Below are positions 31,089 to 62,100 of a stretch of 64,000 nucleotides of DNA, one piece after another. Both the position numbers and the translations under genes were made by a program. This DNA is from Verrucomicrobiota bacterium (GTDB lineage Bacteria; Verrucomicrobiota; Verrucomicrobiia; Opitutales; JABDGR01): assembly GCA_048497935.1 (NCBI GenBank), contig JBEHYY010000005.1:46118-110117 (forward strand), written 5' to 3'. Positions within the stretch are counted from its first letter, which is position 1, and each line of letters opens with the position of its first letter. The notes beneath the pieces are model-generated. The model searched no databases and was not told the DNA's origin. It worked only from the letters and a program-made list of their open reading frames with translations.

Positions 31089-31100
31089 CCTTCTTACTGG

Positions 31101-31310: not shown

Positions 31311-31321
31311 GGTAAAGAGGA

Positions 31322-37124: not shown

Positions 37125-37151
37125 CACAAACCAATTGCCAGCCTTTCTTCC

Positions 37152-37196: not shown

Positions 37197-37263
37197 CCAA
37201 GCGGAGTAAGGGTTGAAGGCCATGCCCGTGTTACGCCGCCTTACGGGATTTCTTTGATTAATA

Positions 37264-37281
37264 AACACTAATCAGGATGGT
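37264..37281. promoter_or_regulatory. Degenerate relative of the palindrome: TTGATTAATAAACACTAA
   Basis: 13/18 match to TTGGTGTTTAAACACCAA, with 9/10 in the right arm. Also part of a local inverted repeat, TGATTA-N8-TAATCA (37265..37284). Sits ~55 nt upstream of the second DUF892-like gene. Confidence 0.25.
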
Positions 37282-37333
37282 GGATATATCCAAGCCGCTA
37301 CGCGATAATTGTCTCACCCCACCCCCTTTCTCA

Positions 37334-38161: not shown

Positions 38162-41100
38162 TTAAGCCTTGTTGCTCTGGGCGGCCGCCTTGGCCAGGCG
38201 CTTGCGGCGCAGGCCGAGGAGCATCATCAAGCCACCGGCAATCAGGCCCCAGGTCGCAGGCTCGGGCACCACCACGAACTGCAGGTCCTTGCCACCGTTG
38301 GCGAAGATGAAGTAGCTCTGGTTGTAGTCATTGTAAACACCGCCGGGGCCGACATTCACCGCGTGGAAGTCCGAAGCGCTCAGGCCGATGCTCGAGAGGC
38401 TGGTGTTGGAGGTCATCAGCGTATAGACGGTCGGCGTCACGCCGTTGTAGAAGCCGGTGTCATCGAAGTCGAATTCGATGTCGTGGTTGCTGCCGCTATA
38501 GATGATGTTGCCCGTCACCACAATCTTGTCGGACAGAGCCGTGATGTTGGCGCTGTTCAGGTGGAACTCGTTGTTGAAGACATTATCCGGGTTCCAAGTC
38601 AGGTTGCCATTGATGGTGAGCGTGGCGAACGCCGAGGCCTGATAGGAGGTGCCCTTGTGCGTCACGTTGGTGAGGGTCATGGAGGTCGTCAGATCATAAC
38701 CGGGGGCAAAGCCGCCGTTCATGTCCACATTATTGTTGATGGTGCCGTTGCCACCGAGGATGGCGCCATTGTTCACCACCACTTGGGAAGCCAGCTTGCC
38801 CTTCAGGACCAGCGCCAGGTTGTTCACCGTCGTGGTGCCGGAGTTGGTGTTGTTACCCGTGAGGATAAGCGTGGAACCGAACTGGGTGAAGCTGTTGATG
38901 TTGTTGGTCTGGACCGAGGCGTTGGCGGTCACGCTGTTCGGCGTCGTATCCTGGGAGTTTGCCGGCGACGACGGGCCAAAGCCGCTGAGGTTGGTTTCAC
39001 CATTGCCGGTGATGGCGCCGGCATACGTGGTCGTGCCGCTCGTGGCCCGGTTGTAATTGAAGGTGCCATTATTCGAGATGTTGCTCGTGACGCTGCTTTC
39101 AGTGCCACCGTCACCCAAGTTGAAGATGGCGCCAGCAGCCACAGAGGTGACGCCGGTGTAGGTGTTCGTGCCCGTTTCCGTCAGCGTGCCCGCGTTAACC
39201 GTCACACCGCCCACCTGCGAATTATTGCCAGAGATGGTCAGGGTATCGTTGCCAATCTTGGTCAGCGAGCCCGCACCGGAGAAGTTACCGCTGTAGGTGC
39301 TGTCGATGAGGTCGTTGCCGATGCTCAGGTTGACAGCGCTCGCAGCCGTGTTGGCGAGGACGAGGTCCTTATTGCCATTCAGGGCGCCCAAGGTCGCGCT
39401 CGTCACACCGGAACCGAAGGCCAGGTTGCCGTCGCCCGTATTGTAATTCACGTTGCTGAACTGCAGGGCGATGCTGCCATTGACCGTCAAGGTGCCCGCG
39501 CTGATGTTGGTGGAGCCCGTGAAGGTGTCAGCCCCGGCGATGATCAGGTTGCCGGTGCCAATCTTCACCAGGTTGCCAGTGCCGGAAATGACGCCCGTGT
39601 AGGTGGTCGCGAGGTTGTTCGACCCGGTGGTCAGTGTGCCATTGCCCAAGCTGACGTTGCCGGCGCCAGCCAGCGAACCGAGCGTGTCATTGAAGTTATT
39701 GAGGCTGAAGGTGGCACCCGAGGAAACCGTCAGGGACGAGTTGCTCGGCACCCAGTTATCCACGCCCAACTGCAGCGTGCCCGCGCTGACGGTGGTGTTG
39801 CCGCTGTAGTTCGAGCCACCGGAAACCGCCAGGGTGCCCGCGCCGGACTTCAGCAGATTCGAGGTCGCATTGCCGCTGACGTTGGAATTGGCCGTCAGGC
39901 TGTAAGTCATGCCCGGGTCAACCAGGATGGTGGCGTTTGTGCCATTGAGCGTGATCCAGCGGGCCGAGGAGATATTGGCCGTCACCTCCAAGGTGCCGTT
40001 CGTTGCGCCGTTGCCGATCGTGACACCCGTCGCCGTGTCGCTGTTGTTCACACCGAGGCTCGTGGCCGAGGTGATCGCCAGCGTGCCGGCGCTGATGCGC
40101 GTACCGCCGAGGTAGGTATTGTTGCCGCTCAAGGTCAGCGTGCCCACACCGGTCTTGGTGACAGCGATCTCATTCGCCGCCGTGACCGTTGTGTTGACGC
40201 CACCCAAACCGATGGTGCCGTTATAATTGTTGGTTCCGGCAATCAGGAGGGTCAGCGTGGAGAGGTTGTTGTTGCCGCTGATCACCGCATTGTGGTTGCC
40301 GGTGCCGCTGGTGGTAAGGCCCGCGAGGTTCTGGTTGGCCACCGCCGCGCTGTCACCGAGGATCAGCGTGCCGCTGTTCGTGCCGCTGCCGAGGACGACC
40401 GAGGTGGCCGTCGGCAGGCGGTTCGTGCCACCGGCGACCTGCACGGTACCCTGCTGAATGTTGGTCAGGCCCGAATAGGCGCTGGCGCCACGCAAGATCA
40501 GCACACCGTTGCCGGTCTTTGTGATGCCCTTGCCGGCGCTGGAGTCTTGGATGCTGCCGCTGACCGTCAGATTGCCGGCCACAAGGTTAAGGGAGACATT
40601 GCCCGCCGTGATGCTCACGTTACCCGTGCCGAGGTTCAAGTCATTGGTGCCGGTGAAGGTGAAGCCCGTCAGCCAGGTCATCGCATTGTTGCTCGTCAAT
40701 GTCTTGGCCGAGCCGCTGGTGTTGTCGATCGTGCCGCCATTGACGACTAAGGTCGCAGTGCTGGCACCGACTGCCGTGGCGTTGTTCAGGTTCAGCTTGG
40801 CACCCGAGTTGACCTGCAGGGTCTTGCCCGCGAGGCTGGCCGTGTTATTGCCGGCAAGGGTGACCACACCGCCATTGATGATGAAGTTGCCGGTGAAGCT
40901 GTTATTACCGGTGATGACCAGGTTGCCCACGTTGCTCACCAGGACGTTGTTGGTGCCCTGGATGCCGGCACCCAAGTTCAGGGTGGAGGTCGAATCAATA
41001 TCGAGGGTGAGCGAGCTGTTGCTGGTGGTCACCAAGGCCGCATTGATGTTCTCGATGCCGCCCACCAAGGAGAGGGTGGCCACACTGGCGGCACCGTTGT

Positions 41101-44100
41101 CAAAGGTGAAGCTGCTCACGTTGCCGGCGTTGATCGTGAACGGCACCGAGCTGGAGAACTGCATCCCGCCCAAGGTGATGGTCGAGACATTGCCCGCATT
41201 CAGCGTGATCGTGCGCGGCGAGTTCAGAATGGTGCTCGGGAAGATGGCGATCTCACCCACCCCGTTCGGGCCATTGGGCGTCAACGAGTGGTTAGCCGAG
41301 GCAAAGCTCCAGTTGGAGGGCGTGTTCCACGAGCCATTCGCGTCCACATTCCACTGATTGGGCGCCAGCGTTGACTGGACAACCAAGTTCAGGATGGTGT
41401 TGTTGGCCGCGAGCTGGAAGAACGAGCTGGAATAGGTGGAGCCGGGCGAGTTGTTCCACACCAAGCCGGAGATATTGCTGAAGATGCCGGTGCTGGAGGT
41501 GCCGATCGTGTAGGTTCCCGGCGTGAGCAACAGGCCGCCCGAGTTCGTGAACATATTCACCTTGACGGCCAAACCACCGAAGTTCAGGCCCGTGGCCCCC
41601 GAGAGGACCAGGCTATCCATGACATTTCCGCTGCTGAGGAAGTAATTCAGGACGGAATTGGCCGCCAGGTTAAGCGAACCGTTGAGGGTCAGGCTGCCGC
41701 CGCCGTTCGAGGTACCGGGGGCCAGGATACCGCCGCCGAGGACGGTGGTCGTGCCATTCAACGTGCCCAAACCGGAGACATTACCACCGTTGTTAACAGT
41801 GACGTTGGCGTTGATCACCGAGCCGCTGTTCGTGACAACCGAGCCGTTCGCGACAACCGGGACCGACAGGTTGCTGCTGAAGATCTGGAAGGTGGCGCCG
41901 CTGGCGACGTTGACCGAGGCACCTTGGATGGTAGCGCTGGTGATGCTGCCATTACCGAGAGAGACCGTACCGGCGTTAATGTTGGTGTTACCGGTGTAGC
42001 TGCTCGAGCCGGTCAGCGTCAGGCTGCCATTGCCGACCTTGGTCAAACCGCCGTCTTGGCCGCCACCGATGGAGGCGTCGTGCGACAGGTTTTGGGCCAC
42101 CGTGATATTGACACCCGTCGTGTTGAACGTCAGGCCGCCGGCGCCGATGTTGGCGCTCGTCAGGCCTTGGAGGAAGGTGGTGCTGCTGACGGTCGGGATG
42201 ATCGTGCCGTTGGCGATGCTGAGGATGGCGCTGCCGGTGTTGTTGCCATTGAAGCGACCGATGTCGCCATCAAGCGTCAACGTGGCGCTGGTATTCGTGC
42301 CGCCCAAGATGAACGTCGCGTTATTGGAGTTGGTGGAGACACCACTCAGGGCCAGCGCCAGGTTGCTGCCATTGACCAGACCGTTGAGGGTAGCCGTGCC
42401 GTTGGCGAGGATGAAGGTGGCGTCCGTCGAGCCGCCCACGCCGGAGTTGCCGCGGCTGACCCAGATGCTCGGGGCGACCAGGTTGACGTTGCCGGTCATG
42501 TTCACCAGAGCGGTGACCACCGAGCCGGTGTTGGTCGTGTTGGCCAAGTCAATCTCGCCGGCGGTGATGTTCGCGTTGCCGGTGATGTTCAGCGTCGCGT
42601 TGCTATTGTTCGACGCATTACCCACGAGCACCGCCAGGTTGCCATTGGAGTTGGTGAGGGTCAGGTTGCCATTGGTAGCGAGCGTCAGTGTGCTGTTGCC
42701 ACCGACCGTCAGACGGGTCGTGCTGGCGGTGCCGTTGCTCAGGTCAACATTACCCGTGAGGGCCATCTTGCCGTTGCCCGTCGTGGTGAGGCTGTTGCCA
42801 TTGCCTGCCAGGCTGCCCGCGATCAGATTGCCTGAAGCTTGCGCCAGGTTGATCGTCGAGGAATTGTTCAGGGTGACCGTGCCCGTACCGAGGTTGAGGG
42901 TACGATTGCTGCCGAAGGTGAAGGCCGTGGTGTTCACCGCCACCGCATTGTTGGTGGTGAGGTTCACCGGAGCGCCCGTCGAGCCGCTCAACGTGCCACC
43001 GGAAATCGTCAGCACACCGGTGCCCAGCGCCGTGGCACTGTTCACATTCAAGGTGCCGGCCTGGAGGTCAACGCCGCCCGAGAAGTCGCTGTTCGGGCTG
43101 CTGATCGTCACCGAGTTGCTGGTGTTCACCGTCACGGCGCCCGCGCCGGTCAGGTTAGCCGCGATATTGCCGTTTTGGGCAAAGATGGCGGTGGCGGCCA
43201 AGGTGCCGTTGCCGTTCAAAGTACCATTGAGCAGGCTCAGGTTGCCCACCGTCTTCACCGCGAGGCCACCGTTACGGACGTTCAACGTGCTGTTCACGTT
43301 GTTAATGAACACATCGCCGCCCAGGCTGCCACCGAGGCGCAGGTTGCCGCCTTCGAGGTCCGTGATGCCGGTGTAGGTGCTGTTGCCGTTCAGGACGAGG
43401 TTGCCGTTGCCGGTGATCGTCAGGCTGTAAGCATTGCCAGCATCACCGACGATGCCGCCGAAGGTCAGGTTGCCCGCGGCGATATTCGCCGTGGTGTTGC
43501 GCAGCAGGGTCACGGCGCCCGCACCGAGGTCGAGGTTGTTCGAGCCGATGAAGTTGATGGTCGCATTCACCACGATCGAGTTATTAACCGCGAGGACAAC
43601 CGCGCTGCCACTGGTGTTATTCAGTGTGCCGCCATTGAGGGTGAATGTGCCAGTGCCCAACGGGCCAGTCGTGTTGGAGCCGCTGCCATTGATGTTCAGC
43701 GTGCCGCCATTGAGGACGAAGCCGCCGGAGTAGGTGCTGTTGCCCGAGATAATGACGGAGCCCGCGCTGTTCATCGTGAGGAAGCCGCCCGAGGTCGTCT
43801 GGCCAATGTTGCTGGTCAGATTGAGGGTGAGGCCCACGTGCGGGTTGAGGCTCAAGCCAGCCGTGGTCACCAGGATGTCCGAGGAGACCGTGTGGTTGCC
43901 GGAGCTCACATCGATGGTGCTGAGATTGCCACCATTGCTGAAGGTGATGGCATTGCCGGAGAGGCTCGTCAGGTTATAGCTGTTCGGTGTCGTGAAGGAG
44001 AGGCCGGAGAGGCTCACGTTTTCATCGAGGGTGACCGTGGCCGCGTTGTCATTGAAGGCCGGGAAGCTGGCCACCGCGCCCACACCGCCGCCCACGCCGG

Positions 44101-47100
44101 CCACGTTGCCGTTGAACCAGCGCGTCGAGTCGGACCAGTTGCCGGTGCCGTCGCGGTTGCTCACATTACCGACCCAGCTGTAATTGGGCGGGTTGAGCTG
44201 GATGTTCACGAACAGGTAGCTGATATTGCCCACCGTGGTGGTGCCGAAGGTGTAGATGTCGCCGAGCACCGGGTTGAGCACGTTGGCCACCGTGAGGGCG
44301 GAATTGCCACCCAGGGTGCCGGTGTATTGGAACAGATTGTAATTACCGGTCACGGACCACTGGTTGCTCTGGATGGCCGTGTTCAGCATCGAGGAGTTGC
44401 CCGTGAGCACCTTACCCGAGAAGCCGAGGTCATAGTTGTAGAAGTTAAACATCGTGGCGTTGCTCAGGGACAGGCCGTTGAGACCCGTGACCACAATGCC
44501 GTTGAACAGATCCGTCGTGCCGTGGGAGGTGTTGCCACCCGCCGGGTTGAAGGTGAAGTTCAACTGGCCACCCGTGATGTTCGCGCTGCCGAAGGTCAAC
44601 AGGCTCGCGGCGGTGCTGACCGAGGTGATGTTGCCATCGATGTCGGTCGTCGTGGAGATGGCCGGACCACCGATTACCGTGGTGGCGTTCGGCACACCCG
44701 CGACCTGGACCACATTGATACCCGGCGACAGATTGCCGGTCGTCATGTTGAGGGAGCCGACGACCACGCCGTTGCCGGAGATAGCGGCCGTGGACGAATT
44801 CAGTTTCACCGCGGTGGCGCCGAAGTTGCCCGAGAGGGCCAGGTTGCCGTTCGTGACGTTGGTCGCGCCCGTGTAGTTGTTGCTGGTGCCCGCGAGGATC
44901 CAGGAGGTCGTGCCGCTCTTGATCACACCCGCCACCGTCGAGCCGTTGTTGAGGAGGCTCGGGTTCATGGTGCTCACACCGGCATGGTTACCGGTGAGGG
45001 TCAGATTGGCACTCGGGGCGGTGTTGGTCACCACCAGCGCACCGCCGCTGAGGAAGTTGACATCCGAGCCGTTGCTGCCGCTGTCGTTGACGGCAATCGT
45101 CGCGCCGTTGTTGGCGGTGGCATTGCCGATGGTGAAGCGGCGGTCGGTGGTGATCGTGGAATTGCCCAGGGCGGTGGTGCCTTGGAGTACCAGTGTGGCG
45201 CCGTTCAGGATCAGGCTGTCCGGGGTGTTGGCGCCTTTACCGATCGGGCTCGGGTTGCCGCCCAAGGCGAGCGTGCCAGCCTGGATCGTGCCGCCCTCAA
45301 CATCGAGGTAGCCGGAGAAGGCGTTGGTCGCCGCGTCCAGCACGAGGGTGCCGGGGATCAAGTCGATGACATTACCGGTGCCGGTGATGTCAGCCGCGCT
45401 GGAGTTCTGGCTGAGGATGCTGGACAGATTCTTCGTTCCATTAATCGGGAGATTCAGGATAAGGAGGCCGTTGTCCACGAGCCCGCCGGCGGTATGGTTG
45501 CCCAAGACGGTGTTAACCGTGATGCCATCGCCCACTTGGAAGATGCCGCTGGGGCTGATGGTGGTGACGCCGTTCCAGGTGTTGACGGTGCTATTATCCG
45601 TGTTCAGCACAAAGGTGCCGTTCACGATATTGAGCGAAACGGTATTGCCGCCGCCGCCCGTGATGCGACCAGAGTAGGTGGAGGTACGGCCGCCCGCGCC
45701 GATGTTCCAAGTCACTGCGCCAGCCGTGGTCTGGCCGCCACCGACGACTGCGGTTGAGTCGCCGAACAGGCTGCCCAGGGAGCGGGTGACGCCAGTCGCG
45801 TCACGAACCTGGATGGTTGTGTTAGTACCAACGATGAGGGTGCCGTTGGCCAAGCCCGAGGACGGGTCGAAGCGGAAGGTGTTGCCGCTGGCCGTCGTGG
45901 CTTGGAGGGTGAGGCAGCCGGTGAAGTTACCGAGGGCACCGGTGATCTGCATGATAAAGCCGATGGCGGTGAGGGACACATTACCACCGCCGACCAGATT
46001 GAATCCGCCGAACGAATTGGTCGAGCTGCTGCCGACGTTCAGGGTCAGGTTGGCGCCCGTGTCCACAATCAGGCGGTTGCCGGCGAAGCCACCGACGTTG
46101 GTGAACAATGCGGCGGAATTGCCGAGGAAGGTGATGTTGCCCGGCCCGAGTTCGCCGCCGCCACTGCCCAGCAGGGTGTAGTCGAGCGTCGAGGCATTGA
46201 CAATGGTGCCACCGGTATAGAGGCCGGCCTGGCCGCTGCCGAAGCGCAGGGTGCCCCCACCCTGGACGACCAAGTTACCGGTGCTGCTGCCGTTATTGGA
46301 AATCACGCTGCTGTAGGTCAGCGTGGTGTTGGCGGGGATGATGAACGTGCCGGTGAAGTTGCCCGCGGAGCCGTTGCCGATGACAATGTTGCGGTTGCCG
46401 CTCAAGGTCACATTGGAAGACACGATTAGCGCGCCGCCATTCAACGTGATGGCCGGGATCGCGAGGGACGGCACCGAGCCCAATTGCAGGTCGGAGCTGA
46501 TGCTGATGCCACCCAGCGTGCCATTGGTCGTGCCGCCATTGATGATGACGTTGCCCGTGATGTTGCCCTGATTGCTGGCGGACAGCGTCAACACGCCGTT
46601 GCCGGTCTTGGTCAGGCTGCCGCTACCCGCGCGGCCAATCGGGTTGGTCAGCGTCACATTGCTGCCATTGGTGTCAAACGTGCCGCCATTGGCGTCGAGG
46701 AAGATATTGAACTGGGAAATGTCGGTGACCGAGCCGGCGTTCCACTGCAGGCCACCACCATTGAGGTGGATGTTGCCCAGGCCGAAGTTGTTCAGAATAT
46801 CGAAGTTGATGAAGCCGCCGTTGATCAACGTGTCGCCGACATAGCCGGAAGAGGAGCTGCTATTGAACCCACGCAGGATCAGCACACCGTTGCCGATCTT
46901 GGTGATGTTCGCCACACTGCCACCGCCGAGGTTGCCCGCGAGGGTGACGGTCTGGCCATTCGTGTCAAAGATCGCCGTGGGCGCGGTGATGAGCACCGTA
47001 TGGTTGGTGGTGATGTCCGCCGGGGCCGTCCATTGCAAGGTGCCGCCCGCCATGATGATGTTGCCGTTGAGGCCGAGGCTGTTGACGTTGTTGATAACCG

Positions 47101-50100
47101 TGGTGCCCGACTGCAGGGTCGTGCGACCCTTGTAGGTATTATTGCCGAACAACTCGACGATGCCGGCGCCGCTCACCGTGACATTGCCGCTGACCGTGCC
47201 GTTGATGTCCGAGATGTTGCCGAGCAAGTTCAACTGGGTCGAAGCGGTGGCGTTGGCGGTGAGGCCTGCGTTGGCCGCGAGGATCATCGGCGCGGAGATC
47301 GCATGCACGCCGCCTTGGACCGTCAGCGGCGCCGTGGAGCCGCTGTTGTTCAGCGTCAGGGCGGAAGAACCGTTGACCGTATAAGTGTTGATGCCCGAGA
47401 AGGTGGCTCCGCCGATGGTGAACGGAGCATCCACCGTGACGTTATAAGCGCCGGACTGGATGGCCGGGAACACCGCGATGGTGCCCGCGCCCGAGGCCGG
47501 GGTATTGTTAAACCAGAAGTTGCCCGAGCTGGCGCTCCACAGGCCGCTGGTGCCCGTGTTGCCCGTCCAGTAGCCGGCACCCGGCGTGAAGGTGATGGTC
47601 ACCGCCAGGATGCTGGAATTGGAACCCAGGGGCGCGATATTCGTGTTAAAGCCGATCTGCTGGCTGATCCAGCTCAGGTTGCCCAGCGAGCCGGTGATGT
47701 TGCCCGGATGGTCCATCTGGAACAGCGCATAGGTGCCCGGCGTGGTGAAGGTGGTGCCATTGACCAGGAAGTTATAACCGCCGCCCGCCGTCACATTCAG
47801 GTTGTTCAGGATGTGCAGCAAGTCGCCGTTGAGGGTCGTGCCGGCAAAGGTCGTGTTGCCCGCGGAAGCCAGGTTCAGGTCGATGTTATAGATACCGCCG
47901 TTGAAGGTCAGATTGCCCAGCGTCATGTTGCCCAAACCACCGATGGTCGGGTTGAGGATACCGCCCGTGCTCACGGTGACGCGGCTGATGTTGCCGGTGC
48001 CGTTGACGTTGGTCAGGGTGCCGTTGACGGCAGTGCCGTTGACGGAGCTGCCGGTGACGATGACGTTCGAGTTCGGCACGGAGCCGGTGAACATCATATA
48101 ACCGTTGGAGATGGTAGTCGCGCCCGAGTAGGGCTGCGTGCCTTGCAAGGTCCAAGTACCGCTGTCCACCTTGTTGATGGAGGTGGCGCCAGCACCGTCA
48201 TCGACAAAGATACCCTGCATCAAGCCGGTGCCGTTACCGCCCAAGGACAGGCTTTCGGAAACGCCGGTGCCGCTGACACCCACGTTGCCCGGATTGGAGA
48301 AGGTCAGCAGGCCCGTGCCGGAGGCGTCGAGTGTGCCGCCATTATGCGAGATGGTGAAGGCGCGGTCCGTGCTGCTGGCCGAGCCGACGTATTGCAGGCG
48401 ACCACCGTTGAAGATAAGGCCGGAAGTCAGGGTGGAAGCGGCACCGATGCTGCTCGGGGCGTAGGCGTCACCGATGAAGCTAGTCTGGATGGTACCGCCA
48501 GACATGATGGTCGCACCCGTATAGTTGTTGCTGACATTGAGGGTAAGGATACCCGCACCGCGCTGCTCAACACTGCCCGGGCCGCTGATGAGGTTCACCA
48601 CGTTGTAGTTGTCGCTACGGTTGAAGGCCAAGGTGGAGTAAACATAGGCCGAGCTGGCGAAGCCAGTGGAATTGACACCGAGCTGGCCGGTGGTGCCGCC
48701 ATTGCCGATCTGCAGGACGCCCTGCGTCACATACATGATGGAGTTATAGGTGTTCGGGCCGGTCAGCGTCCAAGTGCCAGTGCCGATTTTGCTGAAGCGG
48801 TTATTCAGGCCACCGTCCTGGAGGACGCCGTCAAACTCACTGTTGAGATTCAAACTACCGACGACGTAGGTAACGCCGGAGGAGTTGGCGCCACCGAGGA
48901 GGGTGTTGACGCCACCGTTGCGCACGTCGCCAAAGTACTGGAAGGTATTTCCCTGATTGGCAACGAAGAGGGTCAGGGTGGCCGTGGCCGGCACCGTGGT
49001 GGAATTACCCATGTCGTACACGGCGTTCGGTGAAGCACCAGCCGAAAGAATTACCGGGAAGGAGCCGTTGGCAAACAAGCCAGTGCCGTTGAACGTGGTG
49101 GTCTGGCCAGCCAAGGACGGAGAGATATTATTAAGGTAGGTGGTGTTCGCAGTACTGCTACCCAAGATGCGCCAGTTGGCGGATCCCGGCGAGATGACGA
49201 GGAAGGTGCCGTTAAAGCCGAGAACGTTGCCGCTGGGCGAATAAGTCTGGTTATTGCCGAAGAACTGCAGCACCAAGGTAACGTTGCTGGCCGTGCTGGT
49301 GATGCTGCCGCTGAAGGAGTCATTACCACCGCTGGTGCGCTGGGTGAGCAGCTGGCTTGTGTTGTTGTTGCTGATGGGGCTCGGCGTGATGATCAAGTTG
49401 TCGGCGTCGTTGATGCCGTTGCCGTTGAGGAAGTAACCCGAACCGGCGCCTTGGAGGTAGATGTTCGCGCCCGCGCCCCAGGTGTTGCCGGAGACATTGG
49501 CGACCACCAGGAAGCCCTGCTGGACGAAGATATTGCCTTGGAAGGTGGAGCTGGTCGAGGAGCTGGAGATGTTGCCCGTGCCGGTCTTGTACAAGTCACC
49601 CGTGCCCTTGATGGGATTGCTGAAGTTCAAGGTCTGGCCCGCGCCGACATTGATGACACCGCTGCCATTGATGAAGATGCTCTGATTGCCGTCGAGGGTC
49701 GGGCTCGAATTCGTGCTCAACGTGGCGTTATTGGCCAGCGTGATGAAGTTCGGGAAGTTATTGCTGTTCGGGTTCGGGCCGAGGTTGGTGTTGCTGGAGA
49801 AGGACAGTGTGCCGCCACCGATGGTGATGTCGGTGATGTTGCTGCCATTGGCGCGATTGTTGCCCGACAGCACCAAGGTGCCATTGCCGGACTTGGCCAG
49901 GTTGCCTGTGCCGTTCAGCGTGCCAGCGAGGGTCAGGGTGTTATTGCCGACATACACCGTGAAGTCCTGCGAGCCGAAGGCCAGCGTACCCGTGCCAAGG
50001 CTGAGGTTGCCCGTGCCCACGTAGCTGATGAGGCTCGTGTTCAGCGTGATGGGAATGCTGTTCAACGTGGTGTTGCCAGTCGTGCTGTCGATATTGCCGA

Positions 50101-53100
50101 AGGTATAGAGGAAGCCACCGGTACCCAGGGCCGCCGCATTGCCGATGGCCAGCGTGCCGCCATTGAGGGTGGTGCCGCCCGTGTAGTTGCTCGCGCCGCT
50201 CAAGGTTTGCTGGCCGGGGCCGTTGATGACCACGCTGCCGTTGCCCGTCAGGATGCCGCTGAACACGCTGGTGGCATTGGCCACACCGGCGAAGTTCAAC
50301 GTGACCGGCAAGGCGGCCGTCGTGTTGGTGTTCATCAGGTTCAGGGTGCCGGAGCCGACCAAGCCGCCGAGGTTGGCCGTGACGATGCTGGGGCCGAAGA
50401 GGTAGGTGCCGCCCTGGTTGTTCACGCTCACGGTGGCATTCTGCACGGCGAGCGTCGTGGTGGCGCCGCCTGCACGGTCGAAGATCACATTGCCGCCCGA
50501 GTTGTACAGGGTGCCGGTGAAGGTGTTGATGCCGCCCAACACGAGGTTGCCATTGCCGAACTTGGTGATGCTGCTCGTGGTGCCGTTGTTGGCGAGCGTC
50601 ACATTGATGGTCGTGGCATTGGGCGCCCAGGTCGCAATCATCAACGCGCCGTTGAGGTTGGCGGGCTTGATGGTGCCGCTACCCGCTTCGCTGAAGGTCA
50701 CGTTGCCCGCGCCAGTGACATTGCTCGTCACGAGGATGGCATTGAGCGCGAGCGTATTATTCAGGACGATAATGTTGGATTTGTTGGAGCCGTACTGATC
50801 GTCGAAGCGCAAAGCATTCAAGGTGTAGGTGTTGTTGACCGTAATCGGTGCGCCGCCAGCCGGAATGCCCGTGTTACCGCCGGTGAAGCCCAGGTTGCCA
50901 CCCAAGACCAGCGTGCTGTTGGTCGGATCCTGGTTGGTGTCGCCAAAGTACTTCGCCCCAGCGAGCGTGGAGTACGCGACAATGAGCGTGCCATTCTTGG
51001 CTGCGAAGTCGCTCTGGTTCACGAAGGCATAGGGCATGCCGGTCGCCGGGTCGGTGAGCATGGCGCCGTCGGTGCCGCTGCTGGTCGTGACATTGGCACC
51101 CGTGCCGAAATTGGCAGCCACAAAGCTCAAGGCGCCACCCGAGTTGTAGGTGAGGGTGCCGAGATCCAGCGAGAGGGCACCGCTGCCTTTGGTGAGGCTG
51201 ATCGAGGCACCGCCGTTGATCGTCGTGCCCGTCACCGCTTCGCTGTTGGTCGTGTTGCCGAGGATGCTCAGCTTGCTGCCACCCGTGAGGGCCAGGAAGG
51301 AGCTCGTGTTCAGGATGTTGTTGGCCGGAGCCACGGATTGGGTGTGGTCGAGGACCAGGGTGCCCGCCGTGATGTTGGTGGTGCCGTTGTAGGAGTTGGT
51401 GCCGCCCAGGATGAGGGTGCCGTTGCCAGCCTTGCGGATGCCGAAGCCCGCGCCACTGATGTTGCCATCGACTGTCAAGGTGTTGTTACCGACCGTGATC
51501 GTCGGGGAGGCATTCAAGGTCACCGCGCCGGTGCCAAAATTGAAGCTGTAAAGCGAGCCGAGGTAGCTGAAGCTGCCGTTAAAGGCCAAGGGGTTGTTAT
51601 TGGCCAGCGTGATATTGCCAGCGCCGGTGGCGTCAAAGCTGCCACCCGTGAAGGTGAGCAGACCACCGTTGCCGAGCGAGCTGTTGTTGACGAGGTCCAA
51701 GGTGCCCGCCGAGAGCGTGAAGCCGCCGGTAAAGAGGGAGCTGTTGGTGCCGTTGAGCACCAGCAGACCACTGCCCGACTTGATCAGGCTGCCGGAGCCG
51801 GCGATATTGCCTTCAAGGGTCACCGTGTTGGCGCCCGTATTGAAGGTGCCGACCACGCCGGGGTTGACGTTGACCGTGCGGGCGGCCTGGATGTCGATAA
51901 CGTTGCCGGCGAGGAACGTGCTGTTGCCGGTGAAGGTGATGTTGCCGCCAGGAGCACCCAGAACGGCGTCGGCCGCCGCGGCCGTCGAGTTCGTCGAGTC
52001 GTAGTTGATGTTCAACGTACCGGCGTTGATGTAAACGCCGCCGCTGAAGTTGCTGGCGCCACCGAGGCCGGTGAGGATCAAGGTGCCGTTGCCGGTCTTG
52101 CCCAGGGAGTCATTGGAGCCGCCGGCGGCGTTCTTGATATTGCCGCTAAAGGTCATCGTGACGCCATTGTTCACGTTGATTGAACCGGTGCCGGTCGTGG
52201 AGGACGAGGTGTTGGCATCGCCCAAGAAGATGGTGCGGTTGGCGTTGAGGGTCAGGCTGGCGGTCGGATTGAGGGAGCCGCCGTTGAGGGTGATCGAGCC
52301 GACCGTGAAGTTCGTGCTGTTGCCATTGCCGAGGTTATTGTCACTGCCGAAGCTCAGGTTGCCGCCGTTGACCAGGAAGTTGCCGGTGAAGCCGCCGCTC
52401 GTTCCATTGGAGGCGACGTTGGCGTTGTTGCCGGAGAGCACGAGGTTGCCATTGCCCTGCAGCGTGATGTTGGCGCCAGAATTGATGTTGCCCGTGCCGC
52501 CCGGGAGCGCCGTGGTGCTGTTGGTGGTGCCGGAGATGACGCCGCCCAAGGTCAGTGTGCTGCCGTTGTTGACCGTGATGACGCTATCGGTTGCCACGAC
52601 CACCGCGCCCGTGCCCAAGCTCATGTTGCTGGTGCCGACGAAGGTCATCCCGCCGTTGAGGTAGATCGGGGTGGAGATGAGGGTCATGTTCGCGCCGCTG
52701 ACGTTATCAAACGAACCGCCGTTCATGATCAGGGAGCCATTGACACCCAGGACGGCGTTGTTGGCAAAGTTGAGCGTGCCGCCGTGCAGAATCATGTTCA
52801 GCGCAAAGGCGTTGCTGTTGACAGTGTTGTTGAGCGTCTGGCTGCCCGGACCGTCCATCTCGATCGTGGTGGCGCCATTGATGACGAACTGGCCGCTATA
52901 GGTCGGGTTGGTGCTGTTCAACGGGCTCAGATGCAGAATACCGGAGGAGCCGAGCGAGGTGGCCGCGTTGCCCGCCATGCCGCCAATGTAGGCGTTGTCC
53001 GCACCGACGGTCAAATTACCGCCTTGGAAGTAAACAATGCTATTGGAGAGATAACGGTTGTCCGCGAAGAAGCTGCCCGCCGGACGGTCGAGGTTAATGG

Positions 53101-56100
53101 CACCGGCATCCAAATAGGTTTTGCCTGTGAAAGCGTTGGCGGGCGAACCGGAGGTGTCGTCACCGAGGTTCAAGGTGCCGGCGCCGGCCTTGATCAAGTT
53201 GGTGGAGAGCGTGCCGATATCAATCAAGCGGCCCGAATCAATGGTGAAGGGGTGCAGGATGTTGTTCTGCACAATGACGACGTCGCCGCCAGACGTGCGC
53301 GGCGCCAGCGTGCCACCAGCAATGGCGGCACCCAAGCCCGTCACGGACGAGGAATACAGAATGCCACCCAGATTGAGGGTGAAGTTGCCGCCTTGGTTCA
53401 GGAGCAAGGTGGCGGTGCCATTACCCGAGAGAACGGACAACACGGCCAGGTCCTTATTGGCGCTCAGCACAATGGTGGAGCCATCTGCCGGGAGGCTGGC
53501 ATTCTTCACCAAGCTGTTGTTGATGTTGCCGGTGCCGGAGCCGCCGGAGGTGACATTGGAATAACCACCGATGCTGCTCAAGGAGACGATGGAAGCGTTC
53601 GCCGAGGTCCCCGAGCGGGCCGCCCAATCCGTGTTGTCGCCGGTGCCAATCAGCACAAACGGCGTATTATCAGTGCCGACGATGGCCGTGGCGTTAAGCG
53701 AGGCATTGGACGTGGTGAGGAAGTTGAGGGTGCCGGTGCCATTGGTCGAGAGGTAGAGGAGGCCGCCGGACGTGCGCGAGATGGTGGTGCCGAGGTTCAG
53801 ATTCACCGTGGGGTTGGCGCCGCTGGAGGAGCCGGCAATCGTGATGCTGGCCGTGCCCGTGCCGCCGCTGATCGTGGTGTTACTGAAGGTCTGGTTGTTC
53901 GTCAGATTCGCCTCAATGCTCTTGACCACCAGGTTGGTGGAGCCAATGGAGAAGGAATTGTCGAGGGTGGAGACCGTCACCACATCGCTGCCGTTGAGCA
54001 CCAGGGCCGAGACGGCGTTAATGATGCTGTTCTGCGGGGCGCCCGGGGTGGAGAAATCAAGCAGCAAGGTGCCGCTGTTGATGATGGTGCTGCCGGTGTA
54101 GTTGTTCGTGCCGGACAAGCGCAGCGTGCCGTTGCCCGCGACGCCCAAGCTGCCGGAACCCGTGATGCTGCCGGCGTAGGTCAGGTTGTTGTTGCCGGTG
54201 CTCAACGTGCCGATCATGCCGGAGTTGAGGACGATGGAGCGGGTCTTGCTGAGCGTGAAGTTGCCCGAAGCCTGCAAGGTGCCGTTGCCGCCGAAGATAA
54301 TCGAGGAGGTGACATTGCCACCCAGGGCGACATCCGTGGCGACCGCGAGCGTGCCACCCAGGATGGTGGTGTTGCCGGTGTAGGTGTTGATCTGGTTGGT
54401 GCCAATGGTCAGGACGCCATTGCCGCGCTTGGTCAAGCCGCCGTCAACCGCGGTGCCGTTGATGTCGTGAAGCAAGTTGGCCGAGATGGTGACATTGAAG
54501 CCGTTGGTGTCGATGGACGCACCGCCGGTGGACACGAGTGTGGAATTCAGGCCGTTGATGAAGTTGGTGTTGTTGGCGCCGGCCACGAGATTACCGCCGT
54601 TGAGTGTGAGGATGGCCGAACCGGTGGAGCCGATGTTGGCGCCCAAGATGCCGTTCGTCACCAAGTTGCCGCCACTGAGGATATAAGAGGTCGTGGTGGA
54701 ACCGAAGCTCAGGGAGATTTGATTACCGAAGCGCAGGTTCGCGCCGTTGCCCGTGAGGGTCACCGTGCCGCCATTTTGGATCACATTGGTGACGGCGCTG
54801 TCGGCGAGGTCGTCCGAGGTACTACCACGACCCAGCCACATGATGGAGGCCATCAACTGGGAGGTGCCGCCGATGGTGACGGTGGTGTTGGCCGAACCGG
54901 TGCTGCCACCGATGTCCGACAGGTCCAATTCGACGTTGGAGATGAACTGGCCGTTGCCGGTCAAGGCTAGCGTGGTCACATCGCCATCAGCGAGGCCGAA
55001 GGTGTTCGTGCCCTGATTGCCCGTGGTGTTGGCCGTGAGCACACCGCCCGTGCCAACCGTCACCGTCAATCCGACGCCGGAAGCCGAGATATGGTCGGCA
55101 TTCAGATTGGAGCTCAGATTCACCGGGCCGGTGATATTCAGGTTGCCAGCACCCGTGACGAGCAGGGTCTGGCCGGTGTTGCCGGAGGTCACCACGTTGC
55201 CGCCGAGGGTCAGGGTGTTATTATTGAGCAGCAAGGTGGTGTTCGATTGCAGGGTGTCCACGCTGGCGGCGCCGATCGTGAAGTTGCCCTTCCAGTTCAG
55301 CGTGCCCGACCAGGTCTGGTTATTGCTGATGGTCAGCGCGGAGCCACTGCTGTTGAGCAGGCTGCCGTTGGTGATGTTCAAAATACCGCTGCTGGCGAGG
55401 CCGCCGGCGCTGCCGATGCTCAAGGTGCCGGAGGAGATGGTGGTGTTGCCGAGGTAGCTGTTGGTGCCGTTCAAGGTCAGCGTGCCCGCGCCCACCTTGG
55501 TCAGGCTGCCGTTGCCGGTCAGGTTGCCCGCATAAGTGGTGTCGGAATTATTCGTGCCAACCGTCAGCGCCACGCCGAGGGTGTTGACATTGTTGAGCGC
55601 GAGGTTCTTGTTGCCGCTGAGGCCGCCGAAGGTCGCGTTGGTCAGGCTGCTGAAGCTGAGGTTGCCGTTGCCAATGTTGTAGGTGAAGGTGCTGTTTTGC
55701 AGAACCAGGTTGCCACCGAGAATCAGCGTACCGGCGGTGACGAGGGTGGTGCCACTGAAGGTATTATTGCCCGTCAGGGTGAGGTTTTGCGTGCCAGCCT
55801 GGATAAGATTACCCGTGCCGGAGATAACACCGCTGAAGATGGAGCTGCCACCTTGCTTGAACGACAGGGTGCCATTGTCCAAGATGTTGCTGAAGGCCGG
55901 CAGCGTCGTGTTCATCGTGGTGTTAACCACGCCGTCGCCCAACTGGAGGGTGCCGGAATTGATGATGGTGCCGCCCGTGTAGTTTTCCTGGCCATTGACG
56001 GCGAGGATCAAGGTGCCCGAGCCCGCCTTGACAAAGGTGCCAGCGCCGGAGAGCGCCGTGGCCAGGGTGACGGTCGGGTTCGTGCCGGTGTCAAAGGTGT

Positions 56101-59100
56101 CATTACCCACGTTCAATGCCGCAATGCGGGCCGAGATATCCGTGGTGGTGCTGGCGCCCCACTGGACACCGCCGCCTTGCAGGGTGATATTGCCGCTGCC
56201 GAAATTGCTCAGGCTGTTGAAGTTGATCAGGCCGCCTGTGATGAGCGTGCCACCGGTGTAAGTGTTAAGCGCGTTGAGGAACAGTGTGCCCGCGCCCGCC
56301 TTGCCCAAGGTGCCCGCGCCCGCGAGGACGGAGGAGAAGGTCACGTTGTTGACAAACGTATCAATGGTGTCGATGCCGGAGCTGAGGCCGTTGACCGGAT
56401 CCAGGTTGCCGGAAAGGTCGAACGTGATGCCGGAGTTGTATTGCAAGCCACCACCGGCGAGGATGATGTTGCCCGAGCCGAATTGGGCGGAGGAGTTGGA
56501 GCTGAAGCTGATGAAGCCGCCCGTGATGCGGGTGCCGCCGGTGTAGGTGTTGACGGCGGTCAAGCTGAGGGTGCCGGTGCCGCTCTTGGTCAGGCTGCCG
56601 CTGCCGCTGAAGATGCCGGTGTAGGTGGTGCTGTTGTTGTTATTGCCCACAGTGAGGTTCATCGCCGTGGTGTTGTCGCTTTGGGTCAGGCGGATGTTGC
56701 GGTTGCCGGTCAAGCCGCCGAAGGAGGCGTTCGTCAATGTGCCGAAGCTCAGGTTGCCGTTGCCGACGTTGTAGCTCAGCGTGCTGTTGTTGAGGGCGGT
56801 GTTGCTGCCGAGGATCAGGTTGCCGGTCGTGTTGCTGATGTTGGTGACGCCGGAGAAGCTGTTGTTGCCGGAGAGGGTGATGTTGGTGCCGGCAATCGAA
56901 TTGCTGCCACCGGTGAGATTGGTCAGACCCATGGCGGTCAAAACACCGGTGCCGTTGCCGCTGGCGAGCTGGACATTGAGCAAGTTGTTCGCGCTGGTGT
57001 TACCCTGGATCAGGTTCAAAACCTGGAGAGCGGTCGAGGTGCCGACGCCGGTTGCGTTGGTGGCGAGGTTCACCGTGATGACGTTGCCGCTGATATTGAG
57101 GGAGAGCGGGGTGTTATTCCCGGCGACCACATACCGGATTTGCAGGCTGTTGCCGTTGGTGCCGGCAGTGACCGCCGTGAAGGTGAGATTGCCATTGGCG
57201 ACGGTGGTGCTGCCGGTGAAGTTGTCCGCCGTGATGGAGGCGCGGCCGGTGTTCGTGCCGTTGATCGTCAAATTGCCGGTGCCGGTGATGTTGTTGGAGA
57301 AGTTGATGTCACGGGCGAAGTTGAGGGTCAGGTTGGCGTTGTCGGTGATGGTGCCCACGACGCTGGGCACGGTGAAGTTCGCGCTCGTGCCGCCCAGAGC
57401 CGCGCCGTTGCCGATTTGCAGTGTGCCGCCGGTGATGACCGTGGTGGAGCCGACGAAGGTGGAATTGGCGGTGCCGTTATAAACACCGGTCCAGTTTTCA
57501 GGCTGCGTGATGGTCAGCGTGCCGAGGCCGGCCTTCACCAACACACCCGTACCCGAGAGCGGAACGAGCGAGAGCTGCTCGTTGTTGCCGTTGGTATTCA
57601 GCGTATCCAGCGTGTTGCCACCGTTGGTCAGGTTGGCCGAATTGGCCGCGGAGAGCAGGCCCGTGCCGTTGCTGGCCGCGACGTTGGCCGCGATCACGGA
57701 GACATTGGCGGTCGCGTTGCCATTAATCAGCGCGATGATGCTGGAGGCGTTGGAGGTGATGGTGCCGTTCGCATCCGTGGCCAAGTTCACCACAATAGCG
57801 TTGCCCGTGATGCTCAGACCGGCGGTGGCGTTAACGGTGCCGGGGTTCACAAACGAGACGGTGATATTATTGCCGTTGGCGCCGGGGTTGAGCGCAGTGA
57901 TGGTGATGTTGGCGTTGGCGTTCGTCATGTTGGTCGTCAACGAAGCAGCGGCGTTGCCGGTGATGCTGATGTCGCGCGTAACGTCGATGACGGTGTTAGC
58001 GCCCCACTGGATGCCGCCGCCCTGAAGGATGATTTCAGCCGCCGTGCCAACCGGGTGGGCGGTGGTGTTGGCGGTGGTATTCACACCAAAAGCGCTCAGG
58101 GCAACGAAGTTAATTAAACCGCCGTTGATGGTGGTCGTGCCGTTAAAAGTGTTGGTGCCGTTGAGGGTGAGGGTGCCCGCGCCCGTCTTGATCAACGTGG
58201 CTGCGTTCGTTCCACCATTACCCGAAAGCACGCCACTATAGATGGTGTCCTGGCCATTGCCGCCGACCGTGAGGGTCATATTAGCCGCCGTCGTGGGCAC
58301 CAGGGTAAGGTTTTGCGTGCCGTTCAAGCCGCCGAGGACCGGGGCCGTGATACCGGTGTTGAACTTGAGTGTGCCGGAAACGTAATTCAAAGTCGAATTC
58401 GCCAGCGCAGTATTACTGCCCAAGGCCAGAGTGCCGGCGCTGATGAGTGTTGTGCCATTGAAGAGATTGTAGGTGGTCTGCGTGGTCGAATTACTGGTGA
58501 CGGTGTAGCCCGTGGCACCCAGGGTGAAGGTACCGGTGGAGGTATTGATCGTGAGATTGCCCGCACCGGCGATATTGCCAACGAGCGTGGCGTTGTTCGC
58601 ACCCGTGAGACGGAACTCATTGGTGCCGCCAGCAAGACCGTTAGTGGCAAGGAGATAAAGGACACCCAAGGCATTGCCCGCGCCAGTCGGATTGGTCGGA
58701 TCGAGGTTGTTGGCGCCCCAGATCAAGGTGCCGTTGGTCATCTGCATGGCGTTGTTTGAAGTGCCATTGCCAAACGAGTTGTTGGCACTGAAATTGACGG
58801 TGCCGTTGATGACCGCGCCGCCCGTGAAGGTGTTATTGGTGCCACTCAAGATAAGATTGCCGCCATTGGCTTCAACCAGGCCGCCGCCCACCTGCAGGTT
58901 GCCGCTAACGGTCAGCGTGCCGGCGCTCAAGGTAAGGGCTCCGCTGTAGTTCTGCGTGCCGGAGAGGGTGGCGGCCGTGCCTGAGCCAATCTTGGTAAGA
59001 CTGCCGAGACCACTGAGGTTGCCAGAGTAGGTAGAGGCCGCCGCGCCGGATCCGAGACTAAGGGCAACAGCGGTGTTGGAAGTGGTGTTGAGGGCAATGT

Positions 59101-62100
59101 CCTTATTACCAGTCAGCGCGCCAATGGTGGCGTTGGTGAGGGTGCCGAAGCTGAAGTTGCCGTTGGTCGAGGTATTGACCAGCGTGGTATTCAACGTGGC
59201 ATTCTGGAGGGCGATGTTGCTGCCCAGGGTCAGGAGGGCATTCTGCGCGATGATGACATTGCCGGAGAAGTTGCTGGTGGTGGGGGCCAGCGACACATTG
59301 GAAGCGTTGATAAGGGCGAGGGTGCCGGCGCCGGACAGCGTGTTCGTCAGCGTATTGAGGCTGGCGGACGGCTGGTCGAGGTTGAGCGTGCCGCCAATGA
59401 TGAGCAGCGAATTACCGGTGATGGAACCCGTGGAGCCATTGCCGATGGTGAGAATGTTGTTGGCAGTGACGTTGGTCGAGCCCGTGTAAAGCTGGGCCGT
59501 GTTAAAGATGATGTTCTGGAGGGCGGTGCCGTTGACGATCACACCACCGTTGCCGGAAATGGGGATGGAGAAAGTCGCAGCACCCGCCGCGCCCTTGAAG
59601 GTCAGCGACGAAGTGATATTGGCCAGATTGCCGCCGGAGCCGGTGGAGCCGGAAGTGACGGTGACACCGGTGCTGTTGCTGATGATGGACGCGGCATTCT
59701 GCGTGCCATTGCCCAACACCAAGGTGCCGATGTTGATGCTCGTCGTGCCGGTATACTGCTGGTTGGCGAGCAGGGTAAATGTCGCGCCAACGCTGCCGTT
59801 GACGGTATTGCCCGTGACGAAGAGGTTGCCGTTACCAATGCTGCTGTTGGAGAAGAGGATGCCACCATAGGTGGTTGAAGCGGCACCAAAACCCACCGTC
59901 AGATTAATGTTGGTGATGTCAAGCACGTTGGTGCCATTCATGCCGCCATTGCCCGTCAAGCCACCGAGGTTGACCGCGGAAAGGTTGCCAAAGCTGATGT
60001 TGCCGTTGGTGGTGTTGTTGCCGAGGGTCAAATTGAGCGTGGCGTTAAACAAGGCCTGTTGGTTGGCCAGGATAAGCGTGGCGCCGTTGGCGATCGTCAC
60101 CGTGCCGTTAACCGAATTGTTGCCCGCGAGGGTGATTGTGCTCAGCGCCAGGTTACCACCGTTGGCCAAGGGGGTGCTGCTCATGGCGCCGAGAACTGTC
60201 GATCCTACTGTGCCGACCGGCATGGACACACTGACCAGCCCGGCGACCGTGGCGTTGGATTGCAGCAGGTTCAGGACATTGGCGGCGGTGGAGGTGGGCA
60301 CGCCTGTCGCATTGGTGGCGAGATTGATGGTGATGGTGCTGCCGGAGACGGAGACGGACAAGGGAGTGTTGTTGCCGGCGACCGCGTACACGATGTTGAT
60401 GCTGTTGCCGCCCGTGCCAGGCGTGGTGGCCACGTAAGTGAGGCTGCTATTGCCGCCGCCGCCAAGCGCCAGGGAGGCAGCGCCAACGGTGCTGTTGAGG
60501 ATGATGTTGCCGGTGCCGGAAATCGAGGACGAGACGGTGATGTTGCTTGTTTCCTGGAAGATCAAATTGCCGGAGTCGATGATGGCGCCGCCCAAGAGGC
60601 CGTCGTTGCCGACGGTGCCGTCACCCAACTGTAGGATGTTGTTGGCGTTAATATTGGCCGAGCCCGTGAGGAGGCTGGCGTTGCCGGTATAGATGAATTT
60701 GTACTGCGAACCGCCGGCGATGGTCAAGTTACCGCCCAAACCGGAGATGGGCACGCCGGTCTTTTGCTGGGCGCTGCTGGGTCCGGAGAACTGGAGGTTA
60801 AGGGTGTCCGTGATGCTGGTGCTGTCCACGGAACCGAGTTGTGTCGTATTGCCCAAAACGAGGGTACCACCTGAGATGGTGGTGGTGCCGAGGTAGTGCT
60901 GCTGGCCGACGACGACCAGCGAACCGGTGCCCGCTTTGACGAAACTGCCGTTGCCACTCAGGGTGCCGTTATAGGGAGTCACGCCCACGGTGTAATTGCT
61001 GTTGCCCACGGTCAGCGTCACCGCATTGCCCGTCACATCCTGGAGGACATAATTACCATTGCCGCTCAAACCACCGAGGTTGACAAACGTGCCGGCGCCA
61101 GCGCCAAAGATCAACTGGCCGTTGGTGGTGCTGGATTGGAAGTTGACGGTATTCAGGGCAAAGGTGTTGTCGATGATGATATTGCCTGTGCCGGTGATCG
61201 ACAAGGTGGAGATGAGGGAGTTCGTGCCCGTCAGGTCAACATTGCCAGCGCCCTGCTGAATCATGAAGGACGGCGTGCCGTTGGTCGGGAGCGCGCCGGA
61301 AATATTGCTGGAGATGGTGACCGTGGAGCCGGCGGGTTCATTAAAGATCAACTGCGAGCTGTTGGCGCCAATGACGATCGGACCGGTGAGCGAGCCCGCG
61401 TTGGTGCCGTTACCCAATTGCAGGATCGTGCCAGTGGAGTTAGCCGCCACGGTGCTGTTGGAGGAGTTGCTAGTGCCGCCCACCGGGATGACCGTCGTAC
61501 CAGCATAGGTGTCATTATTGGCGATGATCAGGGATTTGCCCGCCGCGAGAACCGTTACCTGGATGTTGCCGCCGGAAATGGGACCCGCGAGTGTAATATT
61601 ATTACCACTGGGGCCCGTGTTAAGCACGAGGTTGGGCGTGAGGACGTTATTGGTAAAGTTGCCCAAAACAAGCCCGTTGGCGGAAATGTCCGCCGTGGAG
61701 CCGGAGACGTAGCGGATTTCACCGCCGGTCCAGGTGATGGGGCCGGTGCCGAAACTGGCGCTCGCATTGGTCAAGGCGTTGAAGATCACCACACCGACTG
61801 TGCCAGTGGCCGCGGGATTGGCGGTGTTGTTAATGATCATACCTCCGCTGAAAGTATTATTCGTGGTGGAATTGCCCAAGGTGAAGGTGCCAAAGCCCGT
61901 CTTGATGAAGGAGCCGGCGCCGCTGAGATTGCCGGTGTAAGTCGTGGTGGAATTGGCGGTACCGACCGTGAGCGCCACGGCGTTGGAATCCTGGTTCTGC
62001 AGCACGATGCCTTTGTTGCCGCTCAGGCCGCCAAAGTTAGCCGAGGTGATGCCGCTGCCGAAGGTCAGCGTACCGTTGTTTGAGCCGGTGTCGTAAGTCA

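Follow-up and report, generated by a model that had tools for sequence, protein, structure and literature searches.

The minus strand of a 64,000-nucleotide (nt) stretch of DNA from a Verrucomicrobiota bacterium of the order Opitutales (GenBank assembly GCA_048497935.1, contig JBEHYY010000005.1, positions 46,118 to 110,117; the whole stretch is hereafter called the window) carries a giant gene that likely encodes one very long surface fibre, anchored by a PEP-CTERM signal and built of tandem passenger-like beta-helix modules whose seams were inherited. According to the list of open reading frames (ORFs) and its translation, the giant ORF extends over 38162..64000 with 8,612 codons and a stop in one frame, and its start lies beyond the window. 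In the proposed architecture, each module starts with a tryptophan-rich segment (the W-motif), continues with PATR-type beta-helix repeats, and finishes with an end domain of ~130 to 150 amino acids (aa) of the pattern G-x-L-x-P-G ... D-x-V-x-V-x-G ... T-P-G-x-Y-x-L, followed by a final hydrophobic strand. Three seams, at each of which an end domain runs into a W-motif, bound the last four modules (at least 5,473, then 1,132, 942, and 1,065 aa). Duplication, shuffling, gain, and loss would act on whole modules, and a module could stand under any anchor, whether a PEP-CTERM signal, an autotransporter barrel, or a domain of the type IX secretion system (T9SS).

Repeats, anchor, and W-motifs of the giant protein

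On sequence grounds, we assign the giant product to the PATR beta-strand-repeat proteins with a PEP-CTERM anchor. The PATR model PF12951 scored 116.2 bits on the ORF (cutoff, 27) and covered 10 stretches in the C-terminal 3,139 aa, while TIGR02601 exceeded its cutoff of 19.85 in each of the last three modules, with 99.4 bits in module 3, 53.2 in module 2, and 28.6 in module 1. Read directly, the C-terminal tail is VPEP-ATWGLIAGGLMMLLGL-RRKR. This PEP-CTERM sorting signal (38165..38269, minus strand) comprises VPEP, the hydrophobic helix WGLIAGGLMMLLGL, RRKR, and a short tail, and it was retrieved by TIGR02595 (23.5 bits; cutoff, 16) and by PF07589 (21.3 bits with a 195-aa query and 18.0 bits with a 3,139-aa query; cutoff, 20.7). 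A PEP-CTERM signal consists of a PEP motif, a transmembrane helix, and a basic cluster, and both a signal peptide at the N-terminus of the same protein and an exosortase (EpsH/Xrt) in the genome are expected to accompany it (Haft et al. 2006, PMC1569441). Among those ORFs of the window that were scanned, none matched an exosortase. Metagenome-assembled genomes (MAGs) of Opitutales and other Verrucomicrobiota encode the giant protein's closest relatives, whose annotations are of the PATR/PEP-CTERM kind. With PATR repeats in every C-terminal module and a PEP-CTERM signal above threshold, it resembles the known PATR/PEP-CTERM proteins (PF12951 and TIGR02601) of Verrucomicrobiota and Planctomycetota. 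However, with no fewer than 8,612 aa it exceeds typical members severalfold in length, and the seams that delimit its last three modules lie outside existing models.

The seams are located at 47581/47582, 44185/44186, and 41359/41360 (J1, J2, and J3, or seams 1, 2, and 3), corresponding to junctions after aa 5473, 6605, and 7547. On re-reading of the translation, the coordinates, sequences, junctions, and sizes of the last three units in the first-pass annotation of this DNA proved exact, and its remark that a Trp-rich segment follows each junction in a protein otherwise poor in Trp holds as well: the ORF has 38 Trp in 8,612 residues, and clusters of three or more occur only at aa 5478-5496, 6609-6628, and 7550-7564. 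W-motif 1 (aa 5474-5544; 47369..47581, minus strand), which reads GAGYWTGNTGTSGLWSASSGNFWFNN...IAVFP, starts module 1 (1,132 aa). W-motif 2 (aa 6606-6679; 43964..44185, minus strand), NYSWVGNVSNRDGTGNWSDSTRWFNG...VASFP, starts module 2 (942 aa), and W-motif 3 (aa 7548-7625; 41126..41359, minus strand), NQWNVDANGSWNTPSNWSF...GVGEIAIFPS, starts module 3 (1,065 aa). The consensus is W-x-G-x(3-9)-W-x(4-5)-N-W ... P ... A-x-F. A family profile (A1) gave 50.5 bits at aa 5477, 41.9 at aa 6607, and 50.1 at aa 7549, and no other site in the ORF exceeded 1.7 bits; these scores are partly by construction because A1 contains the giant's own three copies. Independent support comes from leave-one-out hidden Markov models (HMMs), which recovered each copy at 8 to 13 bits and as the top non-training match.

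According to the first-pass annotation, standalone members of the family begin with such a segment, and the homologues bear this out. Among 141 proteins, the first W-motif lies at a median position of 34, with a signal-like hydrophobic stretch upstream in 124. The motif is found right behind the signal peptide in standalone homologues (e.g., P0090 at position 36, P0013 at 35, P0098 at 46, and P0072 at 28), and the N-termini of two autotransporters, P0033 and P0016, resemble W-motif 3 closely. There is no Pfam or NCBIfam model for the W-motif or the end domain, even at an E value of ≤10. As a separate observation, RemA, a gliding adhesin of Flavobacterium, contains an internal stretch that matches the W-motif profile (PDB entry 8gl6_D, residues 891-954; E value, 1e-7).

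Upstream of end domain 1, the giant ORF appears seamless. This N-terminal part (aa 1-5333; 48002..64000, minus strand) consists of generic PATR-type repeats and internal duplications of up to 50% identity, and neither W-motif nor end-domain profiles gave a positive score in the first ~5,320 aa, in agreement with the first-pass annotation, which had noted no seam there. Self-BLAST places internal duplications at 55471-62770 (minus strand), such as aa 410-708 against aa 2554-2843, with 40 to 50% identity over ~300 aa. Because these copies are much more alike than the C-terminal modules (about 29%), growth by internal duplication is probably more recent in this part. A second motif with a single Trp, L-x-G-G-G-(L/I)-Q-W-x(5-7)-D-(I/L)-S, was observed at aa 473, 757, 1761, 1999, 2614, 5657, and 5753; it differs from the seam motif and occurs both in the seamless part and in module 1.

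End domains and linkers

Four end domains were delimited, all on the minus strand. End domain 1 (pre1; aa 5334-5473, 47582..48001) contains TTPGTYALF, and end domain 2 (pre2; aa 6466-6605, 44186..44605) contains TGNYNLFQYTGTLGG and aligns with a family subgroup that reads ...TPGTYNLFSYSGTLGG.... End domain 3 (pre3; aa 7408-7547, 41360..41779) reads GILAPGTSNGGGSLTLNG...MDSLVLSG...TPGTYTIG...ILNLVV. The terminal end domain (aa 8416-8577, 38270..38755) contains VTPTVYTLM, lies directly before the anchor, and is kept in three relatives (L002, L003, and P0002). A Tyr residue stands 49 to 51 aa ahead of each of the four module ends.

Linking these four segments to one another required deep profiles. 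In leave-one-out HMMs built within the protein from the four pre-junction segments, the omitted copy was never recovered, and pairwise phmmer searches with each segment returned only the segment itself and its orthologues. Starting from the true C-terminus, jackhmmer converged on 5 orthologue-like sequences without a link to the pre-junction segments; starting from the P0090 end domain, in a small database, it stayed confined to its own subgroup. Profiles of the true C-terminus (four orthologues) and of the P0090 group (15 sequences) were compared by hhalign with each pre-junction segment alongside 60 control windows; pre3 alone reached a marginal score (24.9 versus 24.1 for the best control). 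Position-specific composition upstream of 460 internal W-motifs gave weak signals.

Family-enriched profiles performed differently. For these, jackhmmer was seeded with each giant segment while all other giant segments were excluded, and the resulting profile was scanned over the whole giant protein. The pre3-seeded profile scored highest at pre1 with 33.1 bits, ahead of 21.2 bits at the true C-terminal domain and 2.1 bits at pre2, the next best site scoring -0.7 bits. With the pre2-seeded profile, pre3 scored 15.7, pre1 8.3, and the true C-terminus 5.6 bits (next best, 0.6). In test sets of 482 segments upstream of internal W-motifs, 480 matched controls, and 70 segments preceding a PEP-CTERM motif, the pre2-seeded profile matched 112/482 pre-W segments versus 6/480 controls, in addition to the other three giant copies, and the pre3-seeded profile matched 176/482 pre-W segments, 28/480 controls, and 11/70 pre-PEP-CTERM segments. 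The first-pass annotation had proposed the same end-domain pattern at the three internal sites and before the anchor, and family profiles were positive at those four sites only. It had also raised the concern that pre-junction segments might look no different from generic repeats; the two were inseparable with small profiles but were separated with the family-enriched ones.

The position of the end domain in other proteins is consistent with a C-terminal role. End-domain matches stop flush with the W-motif, which comes next after 433 of 639 such matches with a median linker of 6 aa (0 to 3 aa in the giant protein). Of 21 barrel-bearing autotransporter homologues, 11 have a single end domain, whose end lies 346 to 409 aa from the C-terminus, which is the passenger end. 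It abuts the PEP-CTERM motif in P0230 and P0241 and falls ~15 aa short of it in P0236. End domains thus occur at passenger or protein ends and W-motifs behind signal peptides, so the earlier description of the seams, in which a C-terminal-type domain runs into an N-terminal-type segment, is right. In NCBIfam, the model for the EprS autotransporter is matched over positions 497-571 by family representatives of the end domain, as distinct from the giant's own copies. Separately, residues 286-352 of 7jvi_A, a beta-helix domain from a capybara gut metagenome, showed a weak match to the first half of the end-domain profile (E value, 0.002). Taken together with the RemA match, this suggests that the W-motif and the end domain reach past PVC bacteria and Proteobacteria.

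Structure prediction also points to autotransporter passengers. An AlphaFold2 (AF2) model of aa 7330-7760, the J3 region, built from a nine-sequence seam alignment, is all-beta with a predicted local distance difference test (pLDDT) score of 71 and a predicted template modelling (pTM) score of 0.59, and there is no sharp drop in confidence at the linker. Among PDB entries, Foldseek matched this model best to the beta-helical passenger of Ssp, an autotransporter (8e7f); Hbp, Ag43, TibA, and Hap came next. A sequence search of the PDB with module 3 and its seam retrieved only IcsA (5ke1), weakly (E value, 0.005). The giant protein, as predicted, thus shares the beta-helix fold of type Va autotransporters (IcsA, EprS/Ssp, and ShdA), many of which have a W-motif after the signal peptide. 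Unlike them, it has a PEP-CTERM anchor, several passenger-like units per chain, and no match to the beta-barrel translocator PF03797 in its C-terminal 3,139 aa. With such an anchor and no barrel, its export and attachment must differ from those of type Va proteins. We propose that the W-motif and the end domain would cap the two ends of each beta-helix, that the chain would be exported by Sec and its anchor cut by an exosortase, and that the product may serve in adhesion or in a matrix.

The first-pass annotation had also considered a polyprotein, in which one chain would be cut between end domain and W-motif into surface beta-helix proteins of ~1,000 aa, with the PEP-CTERM anchor on the last piece only. 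The seams do separate units that resemble complete mature proteins, and the linkers are short and contain Pro (FTP/GAGYW, LNPP/NYSW, and TLAP/NQW, where the slash marks the junction). However, other family proteins have linkers such as SAFYY/W, PPQAY/W, and PPSDV/W, and the only linker feature that seams of the family have in common is an aromatic residue or Pro close to the first Trp. Furthermore, no protease domain was found in the giant ORF or in the scanned neighbouring ORFs, the N-terminal pieces would be without an anchor once cut off, and AF2 confidence shows no marked drop at the linker. A missing motif does not exclude cleavage at the seams, for which we found no support and which we consider very unlikely. 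The chain would rather stay whole, as a segmented rod or fibre.

A more basic objection is that the seams are an artefact, either of chance patterns in low-complexity G/T/N/S-rich repeats or of a chimeric assembly of several genes. The composition of the giant ORF is indeed extreme (G, T, N, S, and L make up ~64% of its residues), the small-profile tests of the pre-junction domain failed, and a scaffold gap in a metagenomic relative, L001 (see below), falls exactly at a seam. Nevertheless, shuffling of the giant ORF gave three Trp clusters in 1 of 5,000 trials (mean, 0.16), the family profiles were positive at just the four sites, and the same seam grammar is repeated in independent assemblies of many sources. 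The frame is uninterrupted, and no DNA repeat within it exceeds 83% identity or a length of 139 nt, leaving no near-identical repeats for a misjoin. An artefact is exceedingly improbable, and we regard this explanation as already largely refuted.

Distribution and origin of the seams

In an exhaustive search, the W-motif profile matched 14,821 protein cluster representatives at an E value of ≤1e-3. The best 150 of these matches, a list that favours multi-copy proteins, carry 2 to 13 copies each at a median spacing of 449 aa (5th to 95th percentile, 220 to 1,037), with the first copy no more than 130 aa from the start in 110 of the 150. A less biased set of 120 module-3 homologues has an N-terminal W-motif in 31 and an internal one in 19. 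Seams of end domain and W-motif were seen in hundreds of the proteins examined, with 2 to 13 modules each, and internal seams were read directly in P0090, P0035, P0056, P0059, P0079, P0119, and two Verrucomicrobiota contigs (L005 and L006). Judged from these sequences, the seam grammar is the way in which a very large family is normally built. Its members come from Verrucomicrobiota, Planctomycetota, and Proteobacteria, and a W-motif match also occurs in the Flavobacterium adhesin. We found no description of this grammar in the literature searched.

The closest counterparts in organisation are P0241 (3,123 aa), P0148 (3,550 aa; four modules), P0157 (4,243 aa; five modules), P0230, and P0236. 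Each consists of a signal peptide, two to five units running from W-motif to end domain, and a PEP-CTERM signal, a grammar identical to that of the giant protein. In P0241, for instance, the signal peptide is followed by W-motifs at positions 41, 856, and 1899, by end domains at 698-849, 1749-1894, and 2950-3095, and by the PEP motif at 3095, and its modules (~800 to 1,200 aa) are similar in size to the giant's. Compared with these proteins, the giant adds a seamless N-terminal stretch of at least 5,333 aa, and identity is low and evident at the profile level only. It is also one of the giant genes of the PVC superphylum, with which it shares a length of >25 kilobases, a repetitive sequence, and a probable role as an adhesive surface protein; the West-Roberts study, which surveyed PVC phyla including Verrucomicrobia, had proteins of 5 to 10 thousand aa among its size classes. 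Surveys of PVC giant genes do not include the W-motif/end-domain grammar, and the Omnitrophota giants differ in domain content.

Several lines of evidence bear on how the seams arose. The giant's modules are 29 to 33% identical to one another, and when the first 300 aa of each were searched against 632 module starts, the fellow giant modules ranked only 19th to 40th, behind modules that include P0148 (from position 666), P0100 (534), and P0059 (475). Given these ranks, the giant's modules are not recent tandem duplicates. The closest modules tended to be internal ones, a trend that is not significant alone given that internal positions account for 78% of the module starts searched. Seam-spanning queries of 300 aa from J1 and J3 aligned colinearly across the seams of P0158 and P0149, and the corresponding J2 query gave no match. 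Neither a PEP motif nor a transmembrane helix or signal peptide has left a remnant at any of the giant's seams, and the absence of a PEP motif behind the internal copies, as first reported, was evident on direct reading.

The search for split or syntenic versions of the gene, a check suggested in the first-pass annotation, yielded limited material. A metagenomic scaffold, L001 (ENA ERZ28654833 scaffold_15644), carries a 42%-identical module-3 orthologue and keeps seam 3, which reads ...TTGNYTLITS...VANQW / GSWLGSGNWSFASTG.... A 10-N scaffold gap (1886-1895) lies inside the W-motif of this seam, so that frame continuity there cannot be judged. We also observed that ~45 codons of non-family sequence and a stop follow the gap and that gene callers make three genes of the locus; seams may be hard spots for short-read assembly. 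A second relative, L002, covers just the last 410 aa. The third, L003 (CAZLPS010000087.1, from an uncultured Opitutales MAG), has a 38%-identical module-3 body and a conserved true C-terminal domain and PEP-CTERM signal. Its open frame of 2,572 aa contains no W-motif seam and has regular PATR repeats of ~100 aa in place of the seam region, which suggests that modules are gained or lost between relatives.

The first-pass annotation had viewed the gene as a concatemer of once-independent proteins. In such a lineage-specific fusion, three or four head-to-tail genes for secreted PEP-CTERM proteins would have merged, with loss of anchors, stop codons, intergenic DNA, and signal peptides. Every unit does combine N-terminal-type with C-terminal-type elements as a complete mature protein of the family would, some PEP-CTERM homologues (such as P0098, P0097, and P0080) have a single module behind their signal peptide and W-motif start, and modules with 29 to 33% identity are as divergent as unrelated paralogues would be. 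Thus, the part of the claim that concerns the appearance of the units stands. The special fusion event does not, as the same seams are found in hundreds of proteins, in different phyla, and with different anchor types. The giant's junctions are as tight as in those proteins, and fusion would require repeated precise in-frame deletions. Seam-spanning alignments fall on the seams of other proteins, seam 3 is common to the 42%-identical L001, and no remnants mark the seams. We consider a recent fusion of neighbouring genes unlikely. Taken together, the distant sibling modules, the seam-to-seam alignments, seam 3 in L001, its absence from L003, and the lack of remnants favour the interpretation that the seams were inherited, as boundaries between the modules of a beta-helix family. 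It is plausible that the grammar itself arose deep in the family when single-module genes fused, although such an event would not be datable to the giant gene.

Some observations weigh against a segmented fibre of inherited modules. One is the bias of the best-150 list noted above. Another is the size of the giant's first module, which at 5,473 aa or more is far beyond the usual size (95th percentile, 1,037 aa). The end domains are very divergent and went unlinked in pairwise, leave-one-out HMM, and shallow profile-profile tests; pre1 and pre2 are tied to the true C-terminus only indirectly or weakly (5.6 bits). The small share of pre-PEP-CTERM segments matched by the end-domain profile (11/70) implies that many family members end otherwise, and L003 shows that seams are not obligatory. 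Finally, we infer the capping role and the intact chain, and AF2 confidence at the seam is moderate.

Genomic surroundings and significance

The window contains two other very long ORFs, which were considered as possible family members and rejected, being unrelated by domain content. The first, at 10724-19429 on the minus strand (2,901 aa), combines GT2 and glucoamylase-like domains with GH94 supersandwich/catalytic domains, and its architecture is that of a cyclic beta-1,2-glucan synthase. The second, at 21607-27297 on the plus strand (1,896 aa), is a hybrid histidine kinase with approximately ten tandem HAMP/HAMP_2 units followed by GAF, HisKA, and HATPase domains and three receivers. Trp recurs every ~92 aa in this poly-HAMP kinase (positions 96, 193, 285, 377 ... 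929), making the array very regular. Next to it lies a two-component cluster (27321-33468) composed of a receiver-HisKA-HATPase hybrid, a HATPase-only ORF, a HisKA-HATPase-receiver hybrid, and a single receiver. Between this cluster and the giant gene are an ORF with a LigD 3'-phosphoesterase domain (33917-34588, minus strand) and two adjacent DUF892 ORFs (36609-37903, plus strand). Genes for the alpha, gamma, and beta subunits of F1 ATP synthase were found at 4143-8119 on the plus strand, which indicates that the window is ordinary chromosomal DNA. Longer ORFs antisense to the ATP synthase genes had no family matches and are probably high-GC artefacts.

The apparent oddity of the giant gene would thus be the ordinary architecture of its family in an unusually long member. 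We think it probable that the W-motif and the end domain delimit an undescribed, autonomous passenger-like module, which lacks a Pfam or NCBIfam model and serves as an evolutionary unit across type V secretion (T5SS), PEP-CTERM, and T9SS anchoring. Two widespread boundary elements are seemingly absent from Pfam and NCBIfam. Models of both would allow giant PATR proteins to be split into modules, truncated gene calls to be spotted, and the growth of such fibres by module gain and loss to be studied. The findings also raise the testable idea that a single modular passenger unit is common to beta-helix surface proteins of different anchor types.

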